Of a stretch of 64,000 nt of DNA, positions 5,310 to 31,747 are shown piece by piece; within the stretch, counting starts at the first letter, position 1, and each line of letters begins with the position of its first letter. The DNA is taken from the NCBI RefSeq assembly GCF_054482595.1, contig NZ_CM137008.1; one strand, given 5' to 3'. Both the position numbers and the translations under genes were made by a program. The notes below the pieces were generated by a model. That model saw only the letters and a list, made by a program, of their open reading frames with translations, did no database searches and was not told the origin of the DNA.

Positions 5310-5407
5310 GATCACCCAACCACATAAGCTGTGGGATGCAATGCCGAAGCAACCGTCTCAGGAGGAGCTTCGAGATTGCATCGCCAAAGTTTATTCGGGA
5401 GGAATCT

Positions 5408-5680
5408 ATGTCCAGAAAAACAAAATTTAAAGGCACCGCAGCTTCTCGCCGTAGAGCCCGTCGCGCAAATCTGCAAAGTCAGGAGGCGATCAGCTCCGAC
5501 AAGCTACACAGACCAACCCCTTCACGAGTGGTCTTGCAATGCAAGCGCAAACCAGCAATGAGAGCAGAAGTTATAACTCTGACAACGTTGACCAGAAAAT
5601 ATGAAGGTTCAACTTGTCTTCCGAACGTAGCTCTTTACGCGGCAGGCTACCGGAAATCAAAACAACTGACGGCGAGATGA
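5408..5680 (+). CDS. N: N-type antiterminator (90 aa), P22 gp24-like
   Basis: Arg-rich N-terminal motif (GTAASRRRARRANL) and C-terminus ...CLPNVALYAAGYRKSKQLTAR resembling recalled P22 gp24 ...LLPGVALYAAGHRKSKQITAR; ORF-track start 5336 judged too far upstream. Confidence 0.8.
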   Translation: MSRKTKFKGTAASRRRARRANLQSQEAISSDKLHRPTPSRVVLQCKRKPAMRAEVITLTTLTRKYEGSTCLPNVALYAAGYRKSKQLTAR

Positions 5681-8418: not shown

Positions 8419-9095
8419 CACCGGACATTATCCTGCAGCGTACCGGGATCGACGTGAGAGCTGTCGAACAGGGGGATGATGCGTGGCACAAATTACGGCT
8501 CGGCGTCATCACCGCTTCAGAGGTTCACAATGTGATAGCAAAACCCCGCTCCGGAAAGAAATGGCCTGACATGAAAATGTCCTACTTCCACACCCTGCTT
8601 GCCGAGGTTTGCACCGGTGTGGCTCCGGAAGTTAACGCTAAGGCGCTGGCCTGGGGAAAACAGTACGAGAACGACGCCAGAGCCCTCTTTGAGTTCACTT
8701 CCGGCGTGAATGTTACTGAATCCCCGATCATCTATCGCGACGAAAGTATGCGCACCGCCTGCTCTCCCGATGGTTTATGCAGTGACGGCAACGGCCTTGA
8801 ACTGAAATGCCCGTTTACCTCCCGGGATTTCATGAAGTTCCGGCTCGGTGGTTTCGAGGCCATAAAGTCGGCTTACATGGCCCAGGTGCAGTACAGCATG
8901 TGGGTGACGCGAAAAGATGCCTGGTACTTTGCCAACTATGACCCGCGCATGAAGCGTGAAGGCCTGCATTATGTCGTGATTGAGCGGAATGAAAAGTACA
9001 TGGCGAGTTTTGACGAGATGGTGCCGGAGTTCATCGAAAAAATGGACGAGGCACTGGCTGAAATTGGTTTTGTATTTGGGGAGCAATGGCGATGA
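8415..9095 (+). CDS. exo: Exo (Red alpha 5'-3' exonuclease), 226 aa
   Basis: Translation matches lambda Exo as recalled. Confidence 0.95.
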
Positions 9096-9274
9096 CGCAT
9101 CCTCACGATAATATCCGGGTAGGCGCAATCACTTTCGTCTACTCCGTTACAAAGCGAGGCTGGGTATTTCCCGGCCTTTCTGTTATCAGAAATCCACTGA
9201 AAGCACAGCGGCTGGCTGAGGAGATAAATAATAAACGGGGAGCTGTATGCACAAAGCATCTCCCGTTGAGTTAA
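9086..9274 (+). CDS. lambda orf60a-like small protein (62 aa)
   Basis: Matches recalled lambda orf60a; overlaps exo 3' end. Confidence 0.7.
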
Positions 9275-9438
9275 GAACGAGTATCGAGATGGCACATAGC
9301 CTCGCTCAAATTGGAGTCAGGTTTGTGCCAATACCAGTAGAAACAGACGAAGAATTTCATACGTTAGCCGCATCCCTTTCACAAAAGCTGGAAATGATGG
9401 TGGCGAAAGCAGAAGCAGATGAGAGAGACCAGGTATGA
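9247..9438 (+). CDS. lambda orf63-like small protein (63 aa)
   Basis: Matches recalled lambda orf63. Confidence 0.7.
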   Translation: MHKASPVELRTSIEMAHSLAQIGVRFVPIPVETDEEFHTLAASLSQKLEMMVAKAEADERDQV

Positions 9439-9518
9439 CAACCACGGAATGCATTTTTCTGGCAGCGGGCTTCATATTCTGTGTGCTTATGCTTGCCGAC
9501 ATGGGACTTGTTCAATGA
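9435..9518 (+). CDS. Small hydrophobic peptide (27 aa, MTTTECIFLAAGFIFCVLMLADMGLVQ), ATGA-coupled on both sides
   Basis: Read from sequence: ATG overlaps orf63 stop (ATGA), stop overlaps next gene start (ATGA); single predicted TM helix; below ORF-track cutoff. Confidence 0.4.
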   Translation: MTTTECIFLAAGFIFCVLMLADMGLVQ

Positions 9519-9730
9519 CACCTCAGCAGGAAAACGCCCTTCGCAGTATTGCCCGTCAGGCTAATTCTGAAATCAAAAAAGCCAGACAGCAGTTTCCGGA
9601 TAAAAACGTCGATGACATTTGCCGTAGCGTACTGAAGAAGCACCGCGAAACGGTAACGCTGATGGGATTCACACCGACTCATTTAAGCCTGGCGATCGGC
9701 ATGTTAAACGGCGTCTTTAAGGAACGGTGA
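9515..9730 (+). CDS. lambda orf61-like small protein (71 aa from this start)
   Basis: In-frame ATG at 9515 within ORF 9419-9730; sequence MTPQQENALRSIARQ...; start choice uncertain. Confidence 0.6.
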   Translation: MTPQQENALRSIARQANSEIKKARQQFPDKNVDDICRSVLKKHRETVTLMGFTPTHLSLAIGMLNGVFKER

Positions 9731-9752
9731 GCATGAAAAACAAAATCATCAT

Positions 9753-9776
9753 GGAGCTACAGGCTCCTTTTTTATT
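9753..9776 (+). terminator. Weak intrinsic terminator-like hairpin inside the leftward operon
   Basis: GGAGC-TACAG-GCTCC followed by TTTTTT; only a 5-bp stem. Confidence 0.35.
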
Positions 9777-9828
9777 ATTCGCATTCACCCTCAAGCGTAT
9801 TAACCAACAATTCAGGGATTAATGAAAG

Positions 9829-10050
9829 ATGGCAGACATCATTGATTCAGCATCAGAAATTGAAGAATTACAGCGCAATACAGCAATAAAAATGCGTCGT
9901 CTGAACTACCAGACTATATCCGCCACTCATTGTTGTGAGTGTGGCGATCCCATAGATGAACGAAGACGCCTGGTCGTTCAGGGTTGTCGGACTTGTGCAA
10001 GTTGCCAGGAGGATCTGGAGCTTATCAGTAAACAGAGAGGTTCGAAGTGA
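9829..10050 (+). CDS. TraR/DksA-family C4 zinc-finger protein (73 aa)
   Basis: CxxC...CxxC motif (CCECGDPIDERRRLVVQGCRTCASCQ) typical of TraR/DksA-type phage proteins. Confidence 0.7.
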   Translation: MADIIDSASEIEELQRNTAIKMRRLNYQTISATHCCECGDPIDERRRLVVQGCRTCASCQEDLELISKQRGSK

Positions 10051-10454
10051 GCGAAATTAACTCTCAGGCACTGCGTGAAGCGGCAGAGAAAGCCGGTGAA
10101 GATAAGTGGCAGGCTAAAAAAATAAATGGTGATTTTTTCGTTATTCGTCACGGTAGTTATACAAGACAGCATGGCTACACATCGTATCAACCCATTGCGG
10201 AGATTGATTGTAAGCCAGTCCGGGATTTTGTTGCCAAGGCTAATCCGGCTACCGTGCTGGAATTACTGGATGAACTGGAAGCAGCAAAAAAGCGCATTGC
10301 AGAACTGGAAGCGCGGGAAATACTGCTCCCGGAACGTAGCAGCATGCTTCATCGAACAGATTTTCACGATGATTACCAAACGGTAATGGCATACAAAGTT
10401 TCTGAAGTCATCGATGCAATCCGCGCTACTGGCATTCGCATCAAAGGAGAGTGA
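10047..10454 (+). CDS. Ead/Ea22-like protein (135 aa), shortened/mosaic
   Basis: N-terminus MSEINSQALREAAE and C-terminus ...ATGIRIKGE as in lambda Ea22 family; coiled-coil motif LELLDELEAAKKRIAELEARE. Confidence 0.7.
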   Translation: MSEINSQALREAAEKAGEDKWQAKKINGDFFVIRHGSYTRQHGYTSYQPIAEIDCKPVRDFVAKANPATVLELLDELEAAKKRIAELEAREILLPERSSMLHRTDFHDDYQTVMAYKVSEVIDAIRATGIRIKGE

Positions 10455-10455
10455 G

Positions 10456-11211
10456 ATGATTCACTACCACGGTGGGCCTATTACTCCTGATACGTGCGCA
10501 ATGAGGGCATGGAAAGGGCGACATGCGTTTATCAGTTTTGCGCATTCAGGCCAGATCAATCTCGCGGCTGAATACTGTCAGTCGTTCGCGCTGGACAACG
10601 GTGCATTCACCGCCTGGAAAGCAGCTGGCAAAAACAAAATCGACTGGAGCGATTACTACGAGTTTGTTGCTCGCTGGAAGAATCACCCAGGATTCGATTT
10701 TGCCATTATCCCGGATATTATTGATGGCGGAGAGGAGGAAAATGATGCGCTTCTGAATGAGTGGCCTCACGGAAAACTAGCTGGCGTTCCAGTGTGGCAC
10801 ATGAATGAAAGTGACGCGCGATTTATTCATTTGTGCAATGAGTTTCCGCGAGTGGCTATCGGTAGTTGTGGCGACTATGACGTAAAGCGCCCAACTCTTG
10901 CGGTAGCCAGAATGAAAGACCTGATTCGTCACATTGTTGATGGGCATGGTCAGCCGGTTACGAAACTACATGGATTGCGCATGTTAAATCCGCTGATATT
11001 CACAAAATTACCCTTAGCCAGCGCAGATAGTACGAACGTCGCTCGAAACATCGGTATTGATAAAGCCTGGTCTAGGGCTTATGCACCTGCAAGTAAAGAG
11101 ACACGCGCAGCATTAATGGTAGAACGGATTGAGGCACACAATAGCCCTGGTTCTCTTGCGTATTGTGAACAACGCGACCGCTTTGAAATGCAATTGCAAC
11201 TAGCAGTTTAA
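10456..11211 (+). CDS. TGT-fold protein, candidate DpdA-like 7-deazaguanine DNA transglycosylase (251 aa)
   Basis: Strong SD AGGAG before ATG 10456; ordered motifs LDNGAF, FAIIPD, VAIGSCG, HGLRM, ADSTNVARN resembling tRNA-guanine transglycosylase motifs DSGGYQ, MAFDE, AVGG, HYLMGVG, FDCVLPTRSGRN; no zinc-binding subdomain; assignment by eye. Confidence 0.55.
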   Translation: MIHYHGGPITPDTCAMRAWKGRHAFISFAHSGQINLAAEYCQSFALDNGAFTAWKAAGKNKIDWSDYYEFVARWKNHPGFDFAIIPDIIDGGEEENDALLNEWPHGKLAGVPVWHMNESDARFIHLCNEFPRVAIGSCGDYDVKRPTLAVARMKDLIRHIVDGHGQPVTKLHGLRMLNPLIFTKLPLASADSTNVARNIGIDKAWSRAYAPASKETRAALMVERIEAHNSPGSLAYCEQRDRFEMQLQLAV

Positions 11212-11221
11212 GGACTAACAA

Positions 11222-12019
11222 ATGACCACTATTACCAAAGAACGTATTGAATTGTTCATTAAAAATCCGCTTGAAAACGGACTTACTCGTGGCGAACAAA
11301 TGGAACTGGCACGAATTGCACTGGCATCACTGGAACGCGAACTGATTCGCCACGAGCATGCCAAATGGTCTGACTCCACATTTGGCTGCGTTGGCCCCAT
11401 TGGTCCACTGAAACACCTCTCAAAAGAGGCTCTGGAAGCCGCAGCCGAACCAGACGATCTCAGCGAGTGGGCTGATATGCATTTCCTGTTGTGGGATGCA
11501 CAGCGCCGTGCTGGCATCAGCGATGCTGAAATTACCGCTGCTATGGAAGATAAATTGAAGATCAACATGGAGCGCCAGTGGCCTGAACCAATAGATGGTG
11601 AGCCTCGCTTGCACATTAAAGAACCCGGCAACTCTCCGGTAATTCCGGATGGTTTATCCACGGTATGCGCTGAGGCTTATCAGGTTGTAGGAGTTATGGC
11701 AGATGCGCTTGGTGTATTCGGTGATGCAGCAGTACAGAAAGTTCTGGATAACCTGTCACAGCAAAAACTTGTTCACAGAGATGTGCTGCCGTTCTCGCTT
11801 CCGGTGACTCCGGATGGTTGGATAAGCTGTAGTGAGCGAATGCCGAAAGAAACGGGTGACATTATTGTTGTTTCGGATGGCATTGTAATGTCCGGGATTT
11901 CTTATTCTCGTCGTGACGGGTTCTATATAGCCGCATTGGAGTACGACGACGATGAGCCAATTGGCGGTGTAACCCACTGGATGCCTCTACCAGAACCGCC
12001 TCGATTAAAGGAGCTATAA
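11222..12019 (+). CDS. Phage protein with N-terminal dATP/dGTP pyrophosphohydrolase-like (DUF550-like) region and C-terminal DUF551-like region (265 aa)
   Basis: C-terminal motif PDGWISCSERMPKE...THWMPLPEPP typical of DUF551; N-terminal acidic region (EWADMHFLLWDAQRR) resembles MazG-like nucleotide pyrophosphohydrolases; recalled, not searched. Confidence 0.6.
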   Translation: MTTITKERIELFIKNPLENGLTRGEQMELARIALASLERELIRHEHAKWSDSTFGCVGPIGPLKHLSKEALEAAAEPDDLSEWADMHFLLWDAQRRAGISDAEITAAMEDKLKINMERQWPEPIDGEPRLHIKEPGNSPVIPDGLSTVCAEAYQVVGVMADALGVFGDAAVQKVLDNLSQQKLVHRDVLPFSLPVTPDGWISCSERMPKETGDIIVVSDGIVMSGISYSRRDGFYIAALEYDDDEPIGGVTHWMPLPEPPRLKEL

Positions 12020-12133
12020 TAGTGAACTATTATATCTATTTGTATTAAAAGAGTTTTTATAAAATAAATCTTCCAAAGCATGTAAAAACACTGTTAATCT
12101 TAACGTGTGTGAAACGTGAAGAGAGGTGTTGAA

Positions 12134-12415
12134 ATGAGCATTCATGATTTGTGTGAAGATCAAGAGCAATGGGCTATGCAGACCCTTATGGGATCAGGAG
12201 TTCTTGCAAGGTGCAGAATCCATAACGATGTAATTTTAGACAGCGGAAATGATGCTTCTTCTGCTTATAAATTAGGAACTTACCTATATCAAAAAGATAA
12301 TAGCTGCAACTTATTCAATACTCTTACTGAAGCCCGCGACGCAATAAAGGATGCATATGAATCGTATTGTGGGATCGATGATTGCCCACAATGCTCAAAA
12401 TACATTGACGATTAA
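12134..12415 (+). CDS. ea8.5: Ea8.5-like protein (93 aa from ATG 12134)
   Basis: SD GAGAGGTG upstream of ATG 12134 (ORF track starts at GTG 12116); C-terminal CPQC motif; lambda-like position and size. Confidence 0.6.
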   Translation: MSIHDLCEDQEQWAMQTLMGSGVLARCRIHNDVILDSGNDASSAYKLGTYLYQKDNSCNLFNTLTEARDAIKDAYESYCGIDDCPQCSKYIDD

Positions 12416-12503
12416 TAATATGAACAAGTAACTATCCTCGCACTCGCGGGGATTTCTTTTATCTGAACTCGCTACGGCGAGTTTTGTTTTATGGAGATGA
12501 TAA

Positions 12504-12671
12504 ATGCACTTCCGAGTTACAGGTGAATGGAATGGAGAACCATTCAACAGAGTTATCGAAGCCGAGAACATCAGCGACTGCTATGACCACTGGATGCTGT
12601 GGGCGCAGATAGCACATGCAGACGTAACCAATATTCGAATTGAAGAACTGAAAGAACACCAAGCCGCCTGA
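12504..12671 (+). CDS. lambda orf55-like protein (55 aa)
   Basis: Translation MHFRVTGEWNGEPFNRVIEAENISDCYDHWMLWAQIAHADVTNIRIEELKEHQAA; followed by hairpin and T-run; below ORF-track cutoff. Confidence 0.6.
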   Translation: MHFRVTGEWNGEPFNRVIEAENISDCYDHWMLWAQIAHADVTNIRIEELKEHQAA

Positions 12672-12710
12672 TGGCGGTTTTTTCTTGCGTGTAATTGCGG
12701 AGACTTTGCG

Positions 12711-12929
12711 ATGTACTTGACACTTCAGGAGTGGAACGCACGCCAGCGACGCCCAAGAAGCCTTGAAACAGTTCGTCGATGGGTACGCGAGTGCAGGATA
12801 TTCCCTCCTCCGGTTAAGGATGGAAGAGAGTATCTGTTCCACGAATCAGCGGTAAAGGTTGACTTAAATCGACCAGTAACAGGTAGCCTTTTGAAGAGGA
12901 TCAGAAATGGGAAGAAGGCGAAGTCATGA
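12711..12929 (+). CDS. xis: Excisionase Xis (72 aa)
   Basis: Translation MYLTLQEWNARQRRPRSLETVRRWVRECRIFPPPVKDGREYLFHESAVKVDLNRPVTGSLLKRIRNGKKAKS matches lambda Xis. Confidence 0.95.
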   Translation: MYLTLQEWNARQRRPRSLETVRRWVRECRIFPPPVKDGREYLFHESAVKVDLNRPVTGSLLKRIRNGKKAKS

Positions 12930-13980
12930 GCGCCGGGATTTACCCCCTAACCTTTATATAAGAAACAATGGATATTACTGCTACAGGGACCCAAGGACGG
13001 GTAAAGAGTTTGGATTAGGCCGAGACAGGAGGATAGCAATCACTGAAGCAATACAGGCCAATATTGAGTTACTCTCAGACAGCGGACGCAAATCACTGAT
13101 AGACAGAATTAAAGGCGGTGACGCAATCACTCTTCATGTGTGGCTTGACCGATATGAAACAATCCTCACCGAAAGGGGGATCAGGCCGAAAACTCTACTC
13201 GACTACGCCAGCAAAATCAGGGCAATCCGAAGAAAATTGCCGGACAAACCGCTCACTGACATATCAACGAAAGAAGTGGCAGCAATGCTAAACACCTACG
13301 TAGCAGAAGGTAAAGCAGCTTCCGCAAAATTAATCAGGTCAACCCTTGTTGACGTTTTTCGTGAAGCAATAGCCGAGGGGCATGTGGCAACGAATCCGGT
13401 AACAGCAACCCGTACAGCAAAGTCAGAAGTAAGGCGCTCAAGGCTGACAGCTAATGAGTATGTCGAGATTTACCATGCAGCCGAACCTCTCCCTATCTGG
13501 CTAAGGCTGGCGATGGATTTGGCCGTCGTTACAGGGCAGAGAGTCGGCGATTTGTGCAGAATGAAATGGTCAGACATAAACGACAACCATCTTCACATTA
13601 AACAGAGTAAAACAGGGGCTAAACTCGCCATTCCGCTAACGCTAACGATTGACGCGCTCAATATCTCATTGGCTGATACACTACAGAAATGCAGGGAGGC
13701 CAGCAGCAGTGAAACTATAATCGCATCAAAGCATCACGATCCGCTTTCCCCGAAAACAGTATCAAAGTATTTTACAAAGGCGAGAAATGCATCTGGCCTC
13801 TCATTTGATGGAAACCCGCCAACATTCCATGAACTGCGTAGCCTGTCAGCGAGGCTATACCGGAACCAGATTGGCGATAAGTTTGCTCAACGTCTTCTCG
13901 GGCATAAATCAGATTCAATGGCGGCGCGGTATAGGGACAGCCGTGGACGGGAATGGGACAAAATTGAAATCGACAAATGA
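12907..13980 (+). CDS. int: Tyrosine integrase Int (357 aa), lambda-family
   Basis: N-terminus MGRRRSHERRDLPPNLYIRNNGYYCYRDPRTGKEFGLGRDRRIAITEAIQANIEL and C-terminal RSLSARLY...HLLGHKSD...REWDKIEI as in lambda Int; central domain divergent. Confidence 0.95.
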   Translation: MGRRRSHERRDLPPNLYIRNNGYYCYRDPRTGKEFGLGRDRRIAITEAIQANIELLSDSGRKSLIDRIKGGDAITLHVWLDRYETILTERGIRPKTLLDYASKIRAIRRKLPDKPLTDISTKEVAAMLNTYVAEGKAASAKLIRSTLVDVFREAIAEGHVATNPVTATRTAKSEVRRSRLTANEYVEIYHAAEPLPIWLRLAMDLAVVTGQRVGDLCRMKWSDINDNHLHIKQSKTGAKLAIPLTLTIDALNISLADTLQKCREASSSETIIASKHHDPLSPKTVSKYFTKARNASGLSFDGNPPTFHELRSLSARLYRNQIGDKFAQRLLGHKSDSMAARYRDSRGREWDKIEIDK

Positions 13981-30202: not shown

Positions 30203-31747
30203 TTACCCCTGTTGCTGCGTCGGTTGTTCACTCTGCATCGCGCTCGGCCCCAGACGGGCATATTTCTGCATCAGGTAGACTTCGGCGATTAAGAACAGGG
30301 TGTAAAGCCCTACGATCATGATCAGTGAGAAAGCCAGTTGTCCTGTGGTTAAAGCGGAGTGCGCGGAGTATGTCGGTAAGATGTCCTGTATCGCCCACGG
30401 CTGACGACCAAACTCGGTCATAAACCACCCGGCTTCAATCGCAATCCACGGCAACGGCAAACTCCAGAGCGCCATTTTCAGCACCCAGCGATGCTGGTCG
30501 ATTTTGCCACGCAGCGTCTGGACAAGCGCAATCAGCATCACCAGTAGCAGCAGGGAACCACAGCCCACCATGATGCGGAAACTCCAGAATACCGGCGCAA
30601 CCTGAGGTATCGCGCCACGCATCGCCGCCTGGTACTGTGCGGCTGTGACATGATTCATATCCGGCGCATAGCGGGAGAGCAACATGCCGTAACCCAGGTC
30701 GCCTTCCAGCTCCCGGAATGCCTGCAACACATGCGGCTCACGATTGCCTTGCGATATTTCCTGCATTAACAGCCAGGCCATACGTCCGCGTTGCAAGCGT
30801 GGGTAGGTTTCAGCCATCAAATTCTTCAGACCCGGCACGGGTTTATCTAGTGAGTGAGTGGCGAGGATCCCTAACAGCGCGGGAATTTTGATGGCAAAGG
30901 CGTTACGCTCTTGATCCTGTTCCGGCCAGGCAACCACATGGAACGGTGCAGGAGCAGGTTCCGTTTGCCACTCCCCTTCCATCGCCGCCAGTTTTACCGG
31001 TTGTACTTGCGCGACTTCATACGCAGAACTGTCTCCGAGTTGCAGGGTACCGATAATCGCCAGAGTACCGAAGACGGAACCGATGGCAAACGAGCGTAAT
31101 GCGACATCGCGCTCCCGTCCGCGCAGTAAATACCAGGCGCTGATCGCCATAATAAACATGGCCCCGGTCACGTAGCCCGCCATTACGGTGTGCACAAATT
31201 TCACCTGGCTGACCGGGTTAAAGACCAGCTCGCTGAAGCTGGTCATCTCCATACGCAGGGTGTCGATATCAAAATGCGCACCGGTCGGGTATTGCATCCA
31301 ACCGTTGGCATTCAATATCCACAATGCAGAGAGATTTGAACCGAACGCCACCAGCCACGTCACCAGCAGGTGCTGGTATTTATTCAGCCGCTGCCAGCCG
31401 AAGAAGAAAAGCCCGACAAAGGTGGATTCGAGGAAGAAGGCCATTAATGCTTCCATCGCCAGCGGTGCGCCAAAAATATCGCCCACATAGTTGGAATAGA
31501 ATGACCAGTTAGTACCAAACTGAAACTCCATGGTCAGGCCGGTAGCCACGCCAAGAGCAAAGTTGATACCGAAGAGCTTACCCCAGAAGCGCGTCATATC
31601 GCGGTAGATTGTTTTGCCGGTGACCACGTAAATGGTTTCCATGATAGCCAGCAAAAAAATCAGCCCCAGGGTAAGGGGTACAAATAAAAAGTGATACAGC
31701 GCGGTCAGAGCAAACTGCCAGCGCGATAAATCAATGACATCCCACAT
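30203..31747 (-). CDS. appC: Cytochrome bd-II oxidase subunit I AppC (514 aa)
   Basis: Start at [15 protein letters not shown]; Q-loop-bearing subunit I. Confidence 0.9.

Follow-up and report, generated by a model that had tools for sequence, protein, structure and literature searches.

In lambdoid phages, the exo-xis region contains a conserved block of five genes, orf60a-orf63-orf61-orf73-ea22, that is followed by variable genes (Donaldson and colleagues, PMC8614690). The same source records the truncation of orf61 in lambda and states that ribosome profiling of this phage revealed two extra exo-xis ORFs, of 7 and 31 amino acids (orf2311/orf2313).

Bloch et al. (2014, PLoS One, PMC4195576, Table 4) predicted a Rho-independent terminator, t2, between orf61 and orf73 in phages lambda and phi24B, and list it as AAAATCATCAGGGAGCT ACA GGCTCCTTTTTTATTATT with an RNAmotif energy of -8.3 kcal/mol. 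After infection and after mitomycin C induction, the lambda orf73, ea22 and ea8.5 mRNAs were found by RT-qPCR to be below those of the upstream ORFs, a drop that these authors ascribed to t2, whereas in phi24B, in which t2 is identical, the orf73 and ea22 mRNAs were equal to or above that of N (PMC4195576). The RT-qPCR support for t2 is therefore inconsistent. The same study predicted a promoter, p1, with a -35 element TCATCA and a -10 element TTTTATTAT overlapping the T-run (BPROM score 4.82; PMC4195576).

The product of the gene that follows t2 in lambda, Orf73 (Orf2310), binds RNA polymerase at the DksA site and inhibits rrnB P1 (IC50 ~50 nM) and rpsT P2 without ppGpp. Residues D3 and D6 of its DxxDxA motif are needed, as D3N/D6N variants are defective. 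Its expression comes from pL, at 5-20 min after induction; the host then grows more slowly, and about 4-fold more phage is produced with Orf73 (Gopalkrishnan et al. 2022, mBio, PMC9239242).

Here we analyzed a 64,000-nt stretch of contig NZ_CM137008.1 (assembly GCF_054482595.1), referred to below as the window, with positions 9,753-10,050 as the locus of interest. We conclude, with a probability of roughly 0.8, that positions 9419-10090 are a conserved lambdoid exo-xis part that carries the predicted t2 and the orf73 gene of lambda, and that would work in the manner proposed below.

Gene content of the prophage

The locus is part of the pL (leftward) operon of a lambdoid prophage (Table 1). 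Genes exo, orf60a, orf63, orf61, orf73 and ea22 follow one another in this order on the pL strand, which is the arrangement of the exo-xis block, and the same segment is present, identical, in E. coli chromosomes such as that of strain EC5502. No lambda-type boxB was found in the prophage part of the window, which suggests nut sites of another specificity. The N homologue was identified by Pfam alone.

Table 1 Features of the lambdoid prophage in the window. Positions are those of the window.
Feature	Position	Strand	Remarks
N-family antiterminator	5336-5680	+	PF25694, E = 5e-32
gam	from 7211	+	
bet	from 7633	+	
exo	from 8415	+	
orf60a (DUF1317)	between exo and orf63	+	
orf63 (DUF1382)	between orf60a and orf61	+	
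orf61, 71-codon form	9515..9730	+	PHROG 303, E = 5e-36
Small ORF spanning the hairpin	9727..9822	+	31 codons from GTG 9727, 29 from ATG 9733
Predicted terminator hairpin	9753-9767	+	terminator scan; same in lambda
U-tract, T6 then ATTATT	9768..9779	+	Pro-Phe-Leu-Leu in the small-ORF frame
7-codon ORF MKDGRHH	9822..9845	+	overlaps orf73 start
orf73 (TraR/DksA-family C4 zinc finger)	9829..10050	+	Pfam PF01258
Ea22-like gene	10047..10454	+	Pfam Ead_Ea22, E = 3e-17; GTG overlaps orf73 stop
PHROG 887 'queuine tRNA-ribosyltransferase'-like gene	10456-11211	+	
dATP/dGTP pyrophosphohydrolase + DUF551 gene	11222-12019	+	
ea8.5-like gene	12116-12415	+	
xis	from 12711	+	
int	12907-13980	+	
Host torS	from 14075	+	

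In the variable exo-xis part, the gene at 10456-11211 encodes a DpdA/TGT-like protein of 251 amino acids that matches PHROG 887 at E = 3e-101 and has no match in Pfam or NCBIfam. An earlier reading of this DNA, made from the letters without database searches (the sequence-only reading), had rightly assigned it a TGT fold. The dATP/dGTP pyrophosphohydrolase + DUF551 ORF is intact here, with 265 codons, and is given in RefSeq as a 'partial' pseudogene plus a shorter CDS (the split region is 11222-11341).

Other terminator-like hairpins were observed in the operon. One, at 9156-9178 inside orf60a, is stronger than the one studied here (9 pairs) and presumably occupies the position of lambda tL3. 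Three more, at 12434-12453, 12465-12484 and 12661-12680, lie between the ea8.5-like gene and xis. Of these, the orf60a hairpin is identical to the element that Bloch et al. 2014 named 't1', and the other three correspond to the predicted lambda t3, t4 and t5 of the same study.

A predicted terminator inside a small open reading frame

A terminator scan of the + strand identified the stem-loop GGAGCTACAGGCTCC with TTTTTTATTA directly 3' of it. The RNA, GGAGCU-ACA-GGCUCC, forms six pairs, four of them G-C and one G-U, around an ACA loop. The stem is G+C-rich, at the short and weak end of the range of intrinsic terminators, and is abutted by T6 (9768-9773). Folded in a 35-nt context, the element reaches -8.6 kcal/mol (z = -3.1), and one of 200 shuffles was equally stable; in a 111-nt context the fold is unremarkable (z = -1.1). 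As the scan returned 27 terminator-like sites per 12 kb, compared with 13.4 +/- 3.5 in shuffled sequences, a single hairpin is weak evidence and its significance rests on conservation. A search of positions 9000-10600 against Rfam (E <= 1) yielded no family.

The hairpin matches the t2 entry in Table 4 of PMC4195576 save for one base 5' of the stem and, judged by this match, is the published predicted t2, and thus already known. When the literature was searched for tL3 of lambda and for mapped 3' ends, cloning papers alone were returned, with no 3' end reported at the hairpin.

The hairpin lies on the transcribed strand, 23 nt past the orf61 stop, and yet it is inside an ORF. The 98 nt that separate the orf61 stop (9730) from the orf73 start (9829) hold a small ORF that contains the whole stem and the T-run. 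Of its two candidate start codons, GTG 9727 and ATG 9733, the GTG overlaps the orf61 stop (GTGA); its TAA (9820-9822) precedes the orf73 ATG by 6 nt. The 31-codon ORF is likewise present in lambda, at 30620-30715, and in phages 21 and 434 it is an annotated 29-aa CDS; in RefSeq the interval is blank. Going by length, order and the statement in PMC8614690, the small ORF is probably lambda orf2313. On the same grounds the 7-codon ORF MKDGRHH is probably lambda orf2311; it is not conserved outside the lambda type and is absent from Enterobacter-type sequences.

The peptide encoded by the small ORF matches no family in Pfam, NCBIfam or PHROGs. Its frame is open across genera and the C-terminal half is kept, with the pattern PFLL(L/F)AFT(F/L)(N/K)RIN(R/Q)QFR(E/D), while the residues encoded by the stem vary (ELQA, ELKA, SLSR, LKEA). 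Variable sites in the C-terminal half number 14/13/17 at the three codon positions, and there are 15 synonymous versus 48 non-synonymous distinct variant codons, counts that are inflated by rare or frameshifted sequences. Eighteen distinct nucleotide versions encode an identical C-terminal peptide. It is possible that this conserved C-terminal stretch (PFLLLAFTFNRINRQFRE) is functional in its own right.

Two other candidate elements were considered here and rejected. The first, a possible -1 slippery site formed by the heptamer U UUU UUA as read by the small ORF, is C UUU UUA in many variants and has no downstream stimulator. A promoter-like match on the - strand (9803-9774) is attributed to chance, nine such sites being found and 15.7 expected.

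The longest ORF of orf61, the gene preceding the small ORF, starts at 9419 and encodes 103 amino acids. In RefSeq, as in the records of phages 21 and 434, orf61 is annotated with a length of 71 aa. The window carries the full-length allele, with an A6 run (9575-9580, in 9566-9590). In the lambda reference this run is A7 and orf61 is cut to 61 amino acids. Because A6 is found in 67 of 69 related loci, the orf61 of lambda PaPa is a rare frameshift allele. It may be that orf61 really begins at ATG 9515 and not at 9419, which would create a chain of translationally coupled small genes. At 9437-9520 we also observed a hydrophobic 27-codon ORF (MTTTECIFLAAGFIFCVLMLADMGLVQ) with a match to PHROG 26061, which overlaps the orf63 stop and, via ATGA, the start of the 71-codon orf61.

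The hairpin is conserved with compensatory changes

Diverged orf73 homologues were sampled from one genome per species, from viral contigs and from phages POCJ13 and BHUENT3, giving 176 loci with 107 distinct upstream regions. Upstream of the orf73 ATG, at a distance of about 55 nt, a hairpin followed by T5-7 was found in 145 of the 176 loci (81 distinct sequences) in Escherichia, Citrobacter, Enterobacter, Lelliottia-related and other genera, and about 31 loci have no hairpin. T5-T7 is kept in all 81 variants, and a stem of at least 6 bp abuts the T-run in 78 of them, against 1.2% of shuffles. Conservation of the T-run is not independent evidence since it is also under coding constraint (CCU UUU UUA encodes Pro-Phe-Leu).

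At least three unrelated core stems were found: GGAGCU/GGCUCC; GGUCGC/GCGGCC, with the related GGUCGA/UCGGCC; and GCCUCU/AGAGGC. Extended versions of 7-8 bp also occur. Pair-type changes involving both sides of the stem were seen at five of the seven tabulated positions. Arms of the same variant pair at 98.7% of positions, compared with 53.8% for arms taken from different core families, and the folding energies of all variants lie between -8.6 and -12.1 kcal/mol. In phage POCJ13, GGAGC-TTCG-GCTCC-T6 precedes orf73 by 25 nt and the hairpin is spanned by no small ORF; a 428-bp contig of the POCJ13 type shows the same arrangement.

The terminator-like hairpin that the sequence-only reading had placed at 9753 is thus present, with the architecture of an intrinsic terminator that is maintained through compensatory changes. 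Because pairing is kept while the stem sequence and the encoded residues change, and because POCJ13 keeps the hairpin without the ORF, the comparison supports selection on the RNA hairpin itself, independent of the peptide. The stem families are few, and the covariation may come from few evolutionary events.

Some records deserve comment. Contigs filed as Candidatus Nanosynbacter and Segatella copri (both MAGs) and as Xanthomonas pisi carry E. coli/Shigella-type lambdoid sequence, and these assignments most likely reflect mis-binning or contamination. The 'circular' record of Enterobacter phage BHUENT3 (PV844614) has ~100 nt repeated over its junction, an assembly artefact that splits the orf73 homologue and duplicates its start.

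The hairpin and the boundaries of the mosaic

Positions 9400-10088 share 97.5% nucleotide identity with phage lambda. In a pairwise alignment the identity spans orf61, the hairpin, orf73 and the first ~45 nt of ea22, and collapses at ~10090. Stem, loop and T-run are the same, and the sole nearby change is at 9752 (T here, G in lambda). We then compared the window with 80 close viral contigs, 76 of them informative for the right end of the shared block. All 80 are collinear over 9730-9830 and none has a breakpoint at the hairpin. The right end falls at 10060-10093, inside ea22, in 68 of the 76 contigs, and the few left ends are at 9435 (four contigs), at 9533 (one) or further upstream. The real mosaic junction is inside ea22, at ~10090.

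According to the sequence-only reading, the hairpin may be the junction of inherited lambda genes with an exchangeable cargo module to which the TraR-like and Ea22-like genes belong. For the lambda/Stx lineage this is already refuted. Lambda homology is continuous through the hairpin and orf73, it is unbroken over 9730-9830 in the window as well as in each of the 80 close relatives, and the recurrent break is in ea22. Both orf73 and ea22 also belong to the conserved exo-xis block (PMC8614690). As the exchangeable part begins inside ea22, the TraR-like gene is not cargo, and even the first ~45 nt of ea22 are lambda sequence.

The idea of a module boundary fares better in other genera. In every locus that carries the hairpin, the long ORF ahead of the small ORF terminates where the latter begins, through an ATGA or GTGA overlap. 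The genes in this preceding position come from more than 20 unrelated families, and homology in the other genera starts just upstream of the small ORF. The ~31 loci without the hairpin also lack the small ORF, and in most of them orf73 abuts another gene directly. The many upstream families, together with the fixed overlap, indicate that the small ORF, the hairpin and orf73 travel together. Across genera the left edge of this unit, just upstream of the hairpin, is on this comparative evidence a recombination boundary. These observations, and the five close contigs that break at 9435 or 9533, speak for the junction suggested by the sequence-only reading, but in view of the lambda/Stx data we regard it as improbable.

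A more tentative and rather doubtful proposal is that the hairpin, the small ORF and orf73 form one conserved mobile cassette in which the small ORF serves as a translation-sensing gate. Transcription would terminate unless a ribosome arriving from the upstream gene translates through the stem. If this were true, a growth-inhibiting RNA-polymerase binder would be made solely from phage transcripts that are actively translated or N-modified. No description of such a cassette or translation gate was found in the literature searched. The locus offers a mutable element for studies of exo-xis expression, including that of Shiga-toxin phages.

orf73 encodes a TraR-family zinc-finger protein

The 73-aa product of orf73 matches Pfam zf-dskA_traR at E = 8e-9 (35.7 bits, cut-off 24.9) and PHROG 54, 'DksA-like zinc-finger protein', at E = 1.5e-24. 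Its score against TIGR02419, 54.2 bits, is slightly under the cut-off of 59.7 bits. The zinc ligands Cys35/38 and Cys53/56 are present (C35-E-C38, C53-R-T-C56), as is the N-terminal DxxDxA motif (M-A-D3-I-I-D6-S-A8). E44-R45-R46-R47 aligns to E-A-R-R of TraR and includes the equivalent of TraR R48/R49, residues that contact the rim helices and beta' Si3. The sequence also matches TraR as present in its complexes with RNA polymerase (chains in 5W1S and 6N57).

Orf73 of the window is identical to that of lambda at 71 of 73 residues (97%). The lambda ORF (30392-30613, 73 codons) is without annotation in the lambda record. The sequence-only reading had recognized a TraR/DksA zinc-finger gene here, in agreement with PF01258 and PHROG 54, and had stated that phage proteins of this family bind the RNA polymerase secondary channel and can reprogram host transcription, which is true of the 97%-identical lambda protein (PMC9239242). 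The effect on rRNA promoters that it put forward for study has already been measured on lambda Orf73 (PMC9239242). From the sequence likeness we infer that Orf73 of the window also binds the secondary channel and inhibits rrnB P1 without ppGpp.

Proposed function and alternative explanations

In the working that we propose for the conserved exo-xis part, RNA polymerase without N modification would tend to stop at the hairpin and U-tract. Such a stop would shield orf73 and the genes behind it from stray or unmodified transcription, which would matter because Orf73 slows host growth. After induction, N-modified polymerase coming from pL would read through, and Orf73 would appear early in the lytic cycle. 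Translation of the small ORF would probably both counter hairpin formation and supply orf73 with ribosomes. With no need of ppGpp, Orf73 would then bind the host polymerase at its secondary channel and, by transfer from lambda, inhibit rRNA and ribosomal-protein promoters and raise phage yield. Differential expression across the hairpin, raised as a possibility by the sequence-only reading, has been proposed for lambda from RT-qPCR, but phi24B shows no downstream drop (PMC4195576).

A refinement of this explanation is that the hairpin is a translation-coupled attenuator, with the small ORF as leader peptide. A ribosome close behind the polymerase would block the terminator, and transcription of orf73 and of the genes behind it would depend on active translation of the upstream gene. 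Both stem and U-tract lie within the small ORF in nearly all of the 81 variants, its start overlaps the preceding stop behind more than 20 unrelated genes, and a 31-aa ORF of this block is ribosome-occupied in lambda according to the statement in PMC8614690. In POCJ13 the upstream stop codon is 7 nt before the stem, so that a terminating ribosome would cover the 5' arm. However, N antitermination already accounts for read-through, and tight gene packing alone can yield an ORF that spans a terminator. The conserved C-terminal half of the peptide, moreover, suggests a function of its own for which a pure leader has no need. We consider the attenuator unlikely; it would refine the N-dependent reading and not exclude it.

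Two further explanations were weighed. The inverted repeat could have no RNA function and be a by-product of peptide coding, or chance: terminator-like patterns are common in this region (27 versus 13.4 expected), the T-run encodes the conserved Pro-Phe-Leu-Leu, and phi24B, with the identical element, shows no downstream mRNA drop (PMC4195576). This is hard to reconcile with the at least three unrelated stems that stay self-complementary while the encoded residues change, with the stems of at least 6 bp in 78 of 81 variants against 1.2% of shuffles, or with the POCJ13 type, which keeps hairpin and T6 without the ORF, and we judge it very improbable. The site could, alternatively, be promoter p1 of Bloch et al. 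2014, driving orf73 and ea22 independently of pL. Apart from the BPROM score of 4.82, the high orf73 and ea22 mRNA levels in phi24B, above all after H2O2 (PMC4195576), are in line with such a promoter. Our sigma-70 scan gave no + strand site here. TCATCA is at 9746-9751, the hexamer spaced 18 nt from it, TTTTAT, lacks the A at position 2, and TATTAT would require a 21-nt spacer. Enterobacter- and Citrobacter-type relatives have TATTGC in the -10 region, and their -35 region is variable. Promoter p1 thus appears poorly supported and highly unlikely as the explanation of the site.

Comparison with known systems

In the E. coli pyrBI attenuator the leader ORF spans an intrinsic terminator. The window resembles it in anatomy alone, as a short ORF runs through a hairpin and U-tract upstream of the gene that would be regulated. 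Here, the small ORF is coupled to the preceding gene and not free-standing, and its C-terminal peptide is conserved. Nucleotide-sensitive pausing and regulated coupling, as in pyrBI, are not claimed for the window, the likeness being confined to sequence anatomy.

TraR of the F plasmid (5W1S, 6N57) shares size and family with Orf73, and the acidic N-terminal motif and the C4 finger align. The sequences are distant (E = 5e-5), and TraR is encoded in a conjugation operon. TraR activates F promoters, whereas lambda Orf73 activates none of the lambda promoters tested (PMC9239242). Lambda Orf73 itself is far closer: the DxxDxA motif, the four cysteines, the arginine cluster, the C-terminal helix and the place upstream of ea22 are all shared, and the window protein differs by H27Y and A29T, between the N-terminal helix and the zinc finger.

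The t2 element of lambda and phi24B shares locus, strand, stem, loop and U-tract with the hairpin of the window. Here a T replaces the G that lambda has at 9752, at the cost of two outer wobble or A-U pairs, and the predicted fold is consequently weaker than in lambda (-8.6 versus -10.2 kcal/mol). The description of t2 in PMC4195576 mentions neither the enclosing small ORF nor comparative support. To that single-sequence prediction the present analysis makes two modest additions, namely comparative evidence, stronger than the prediction itself, of selection on the hairpin, and the finding that a conserved small ORF encloses it.
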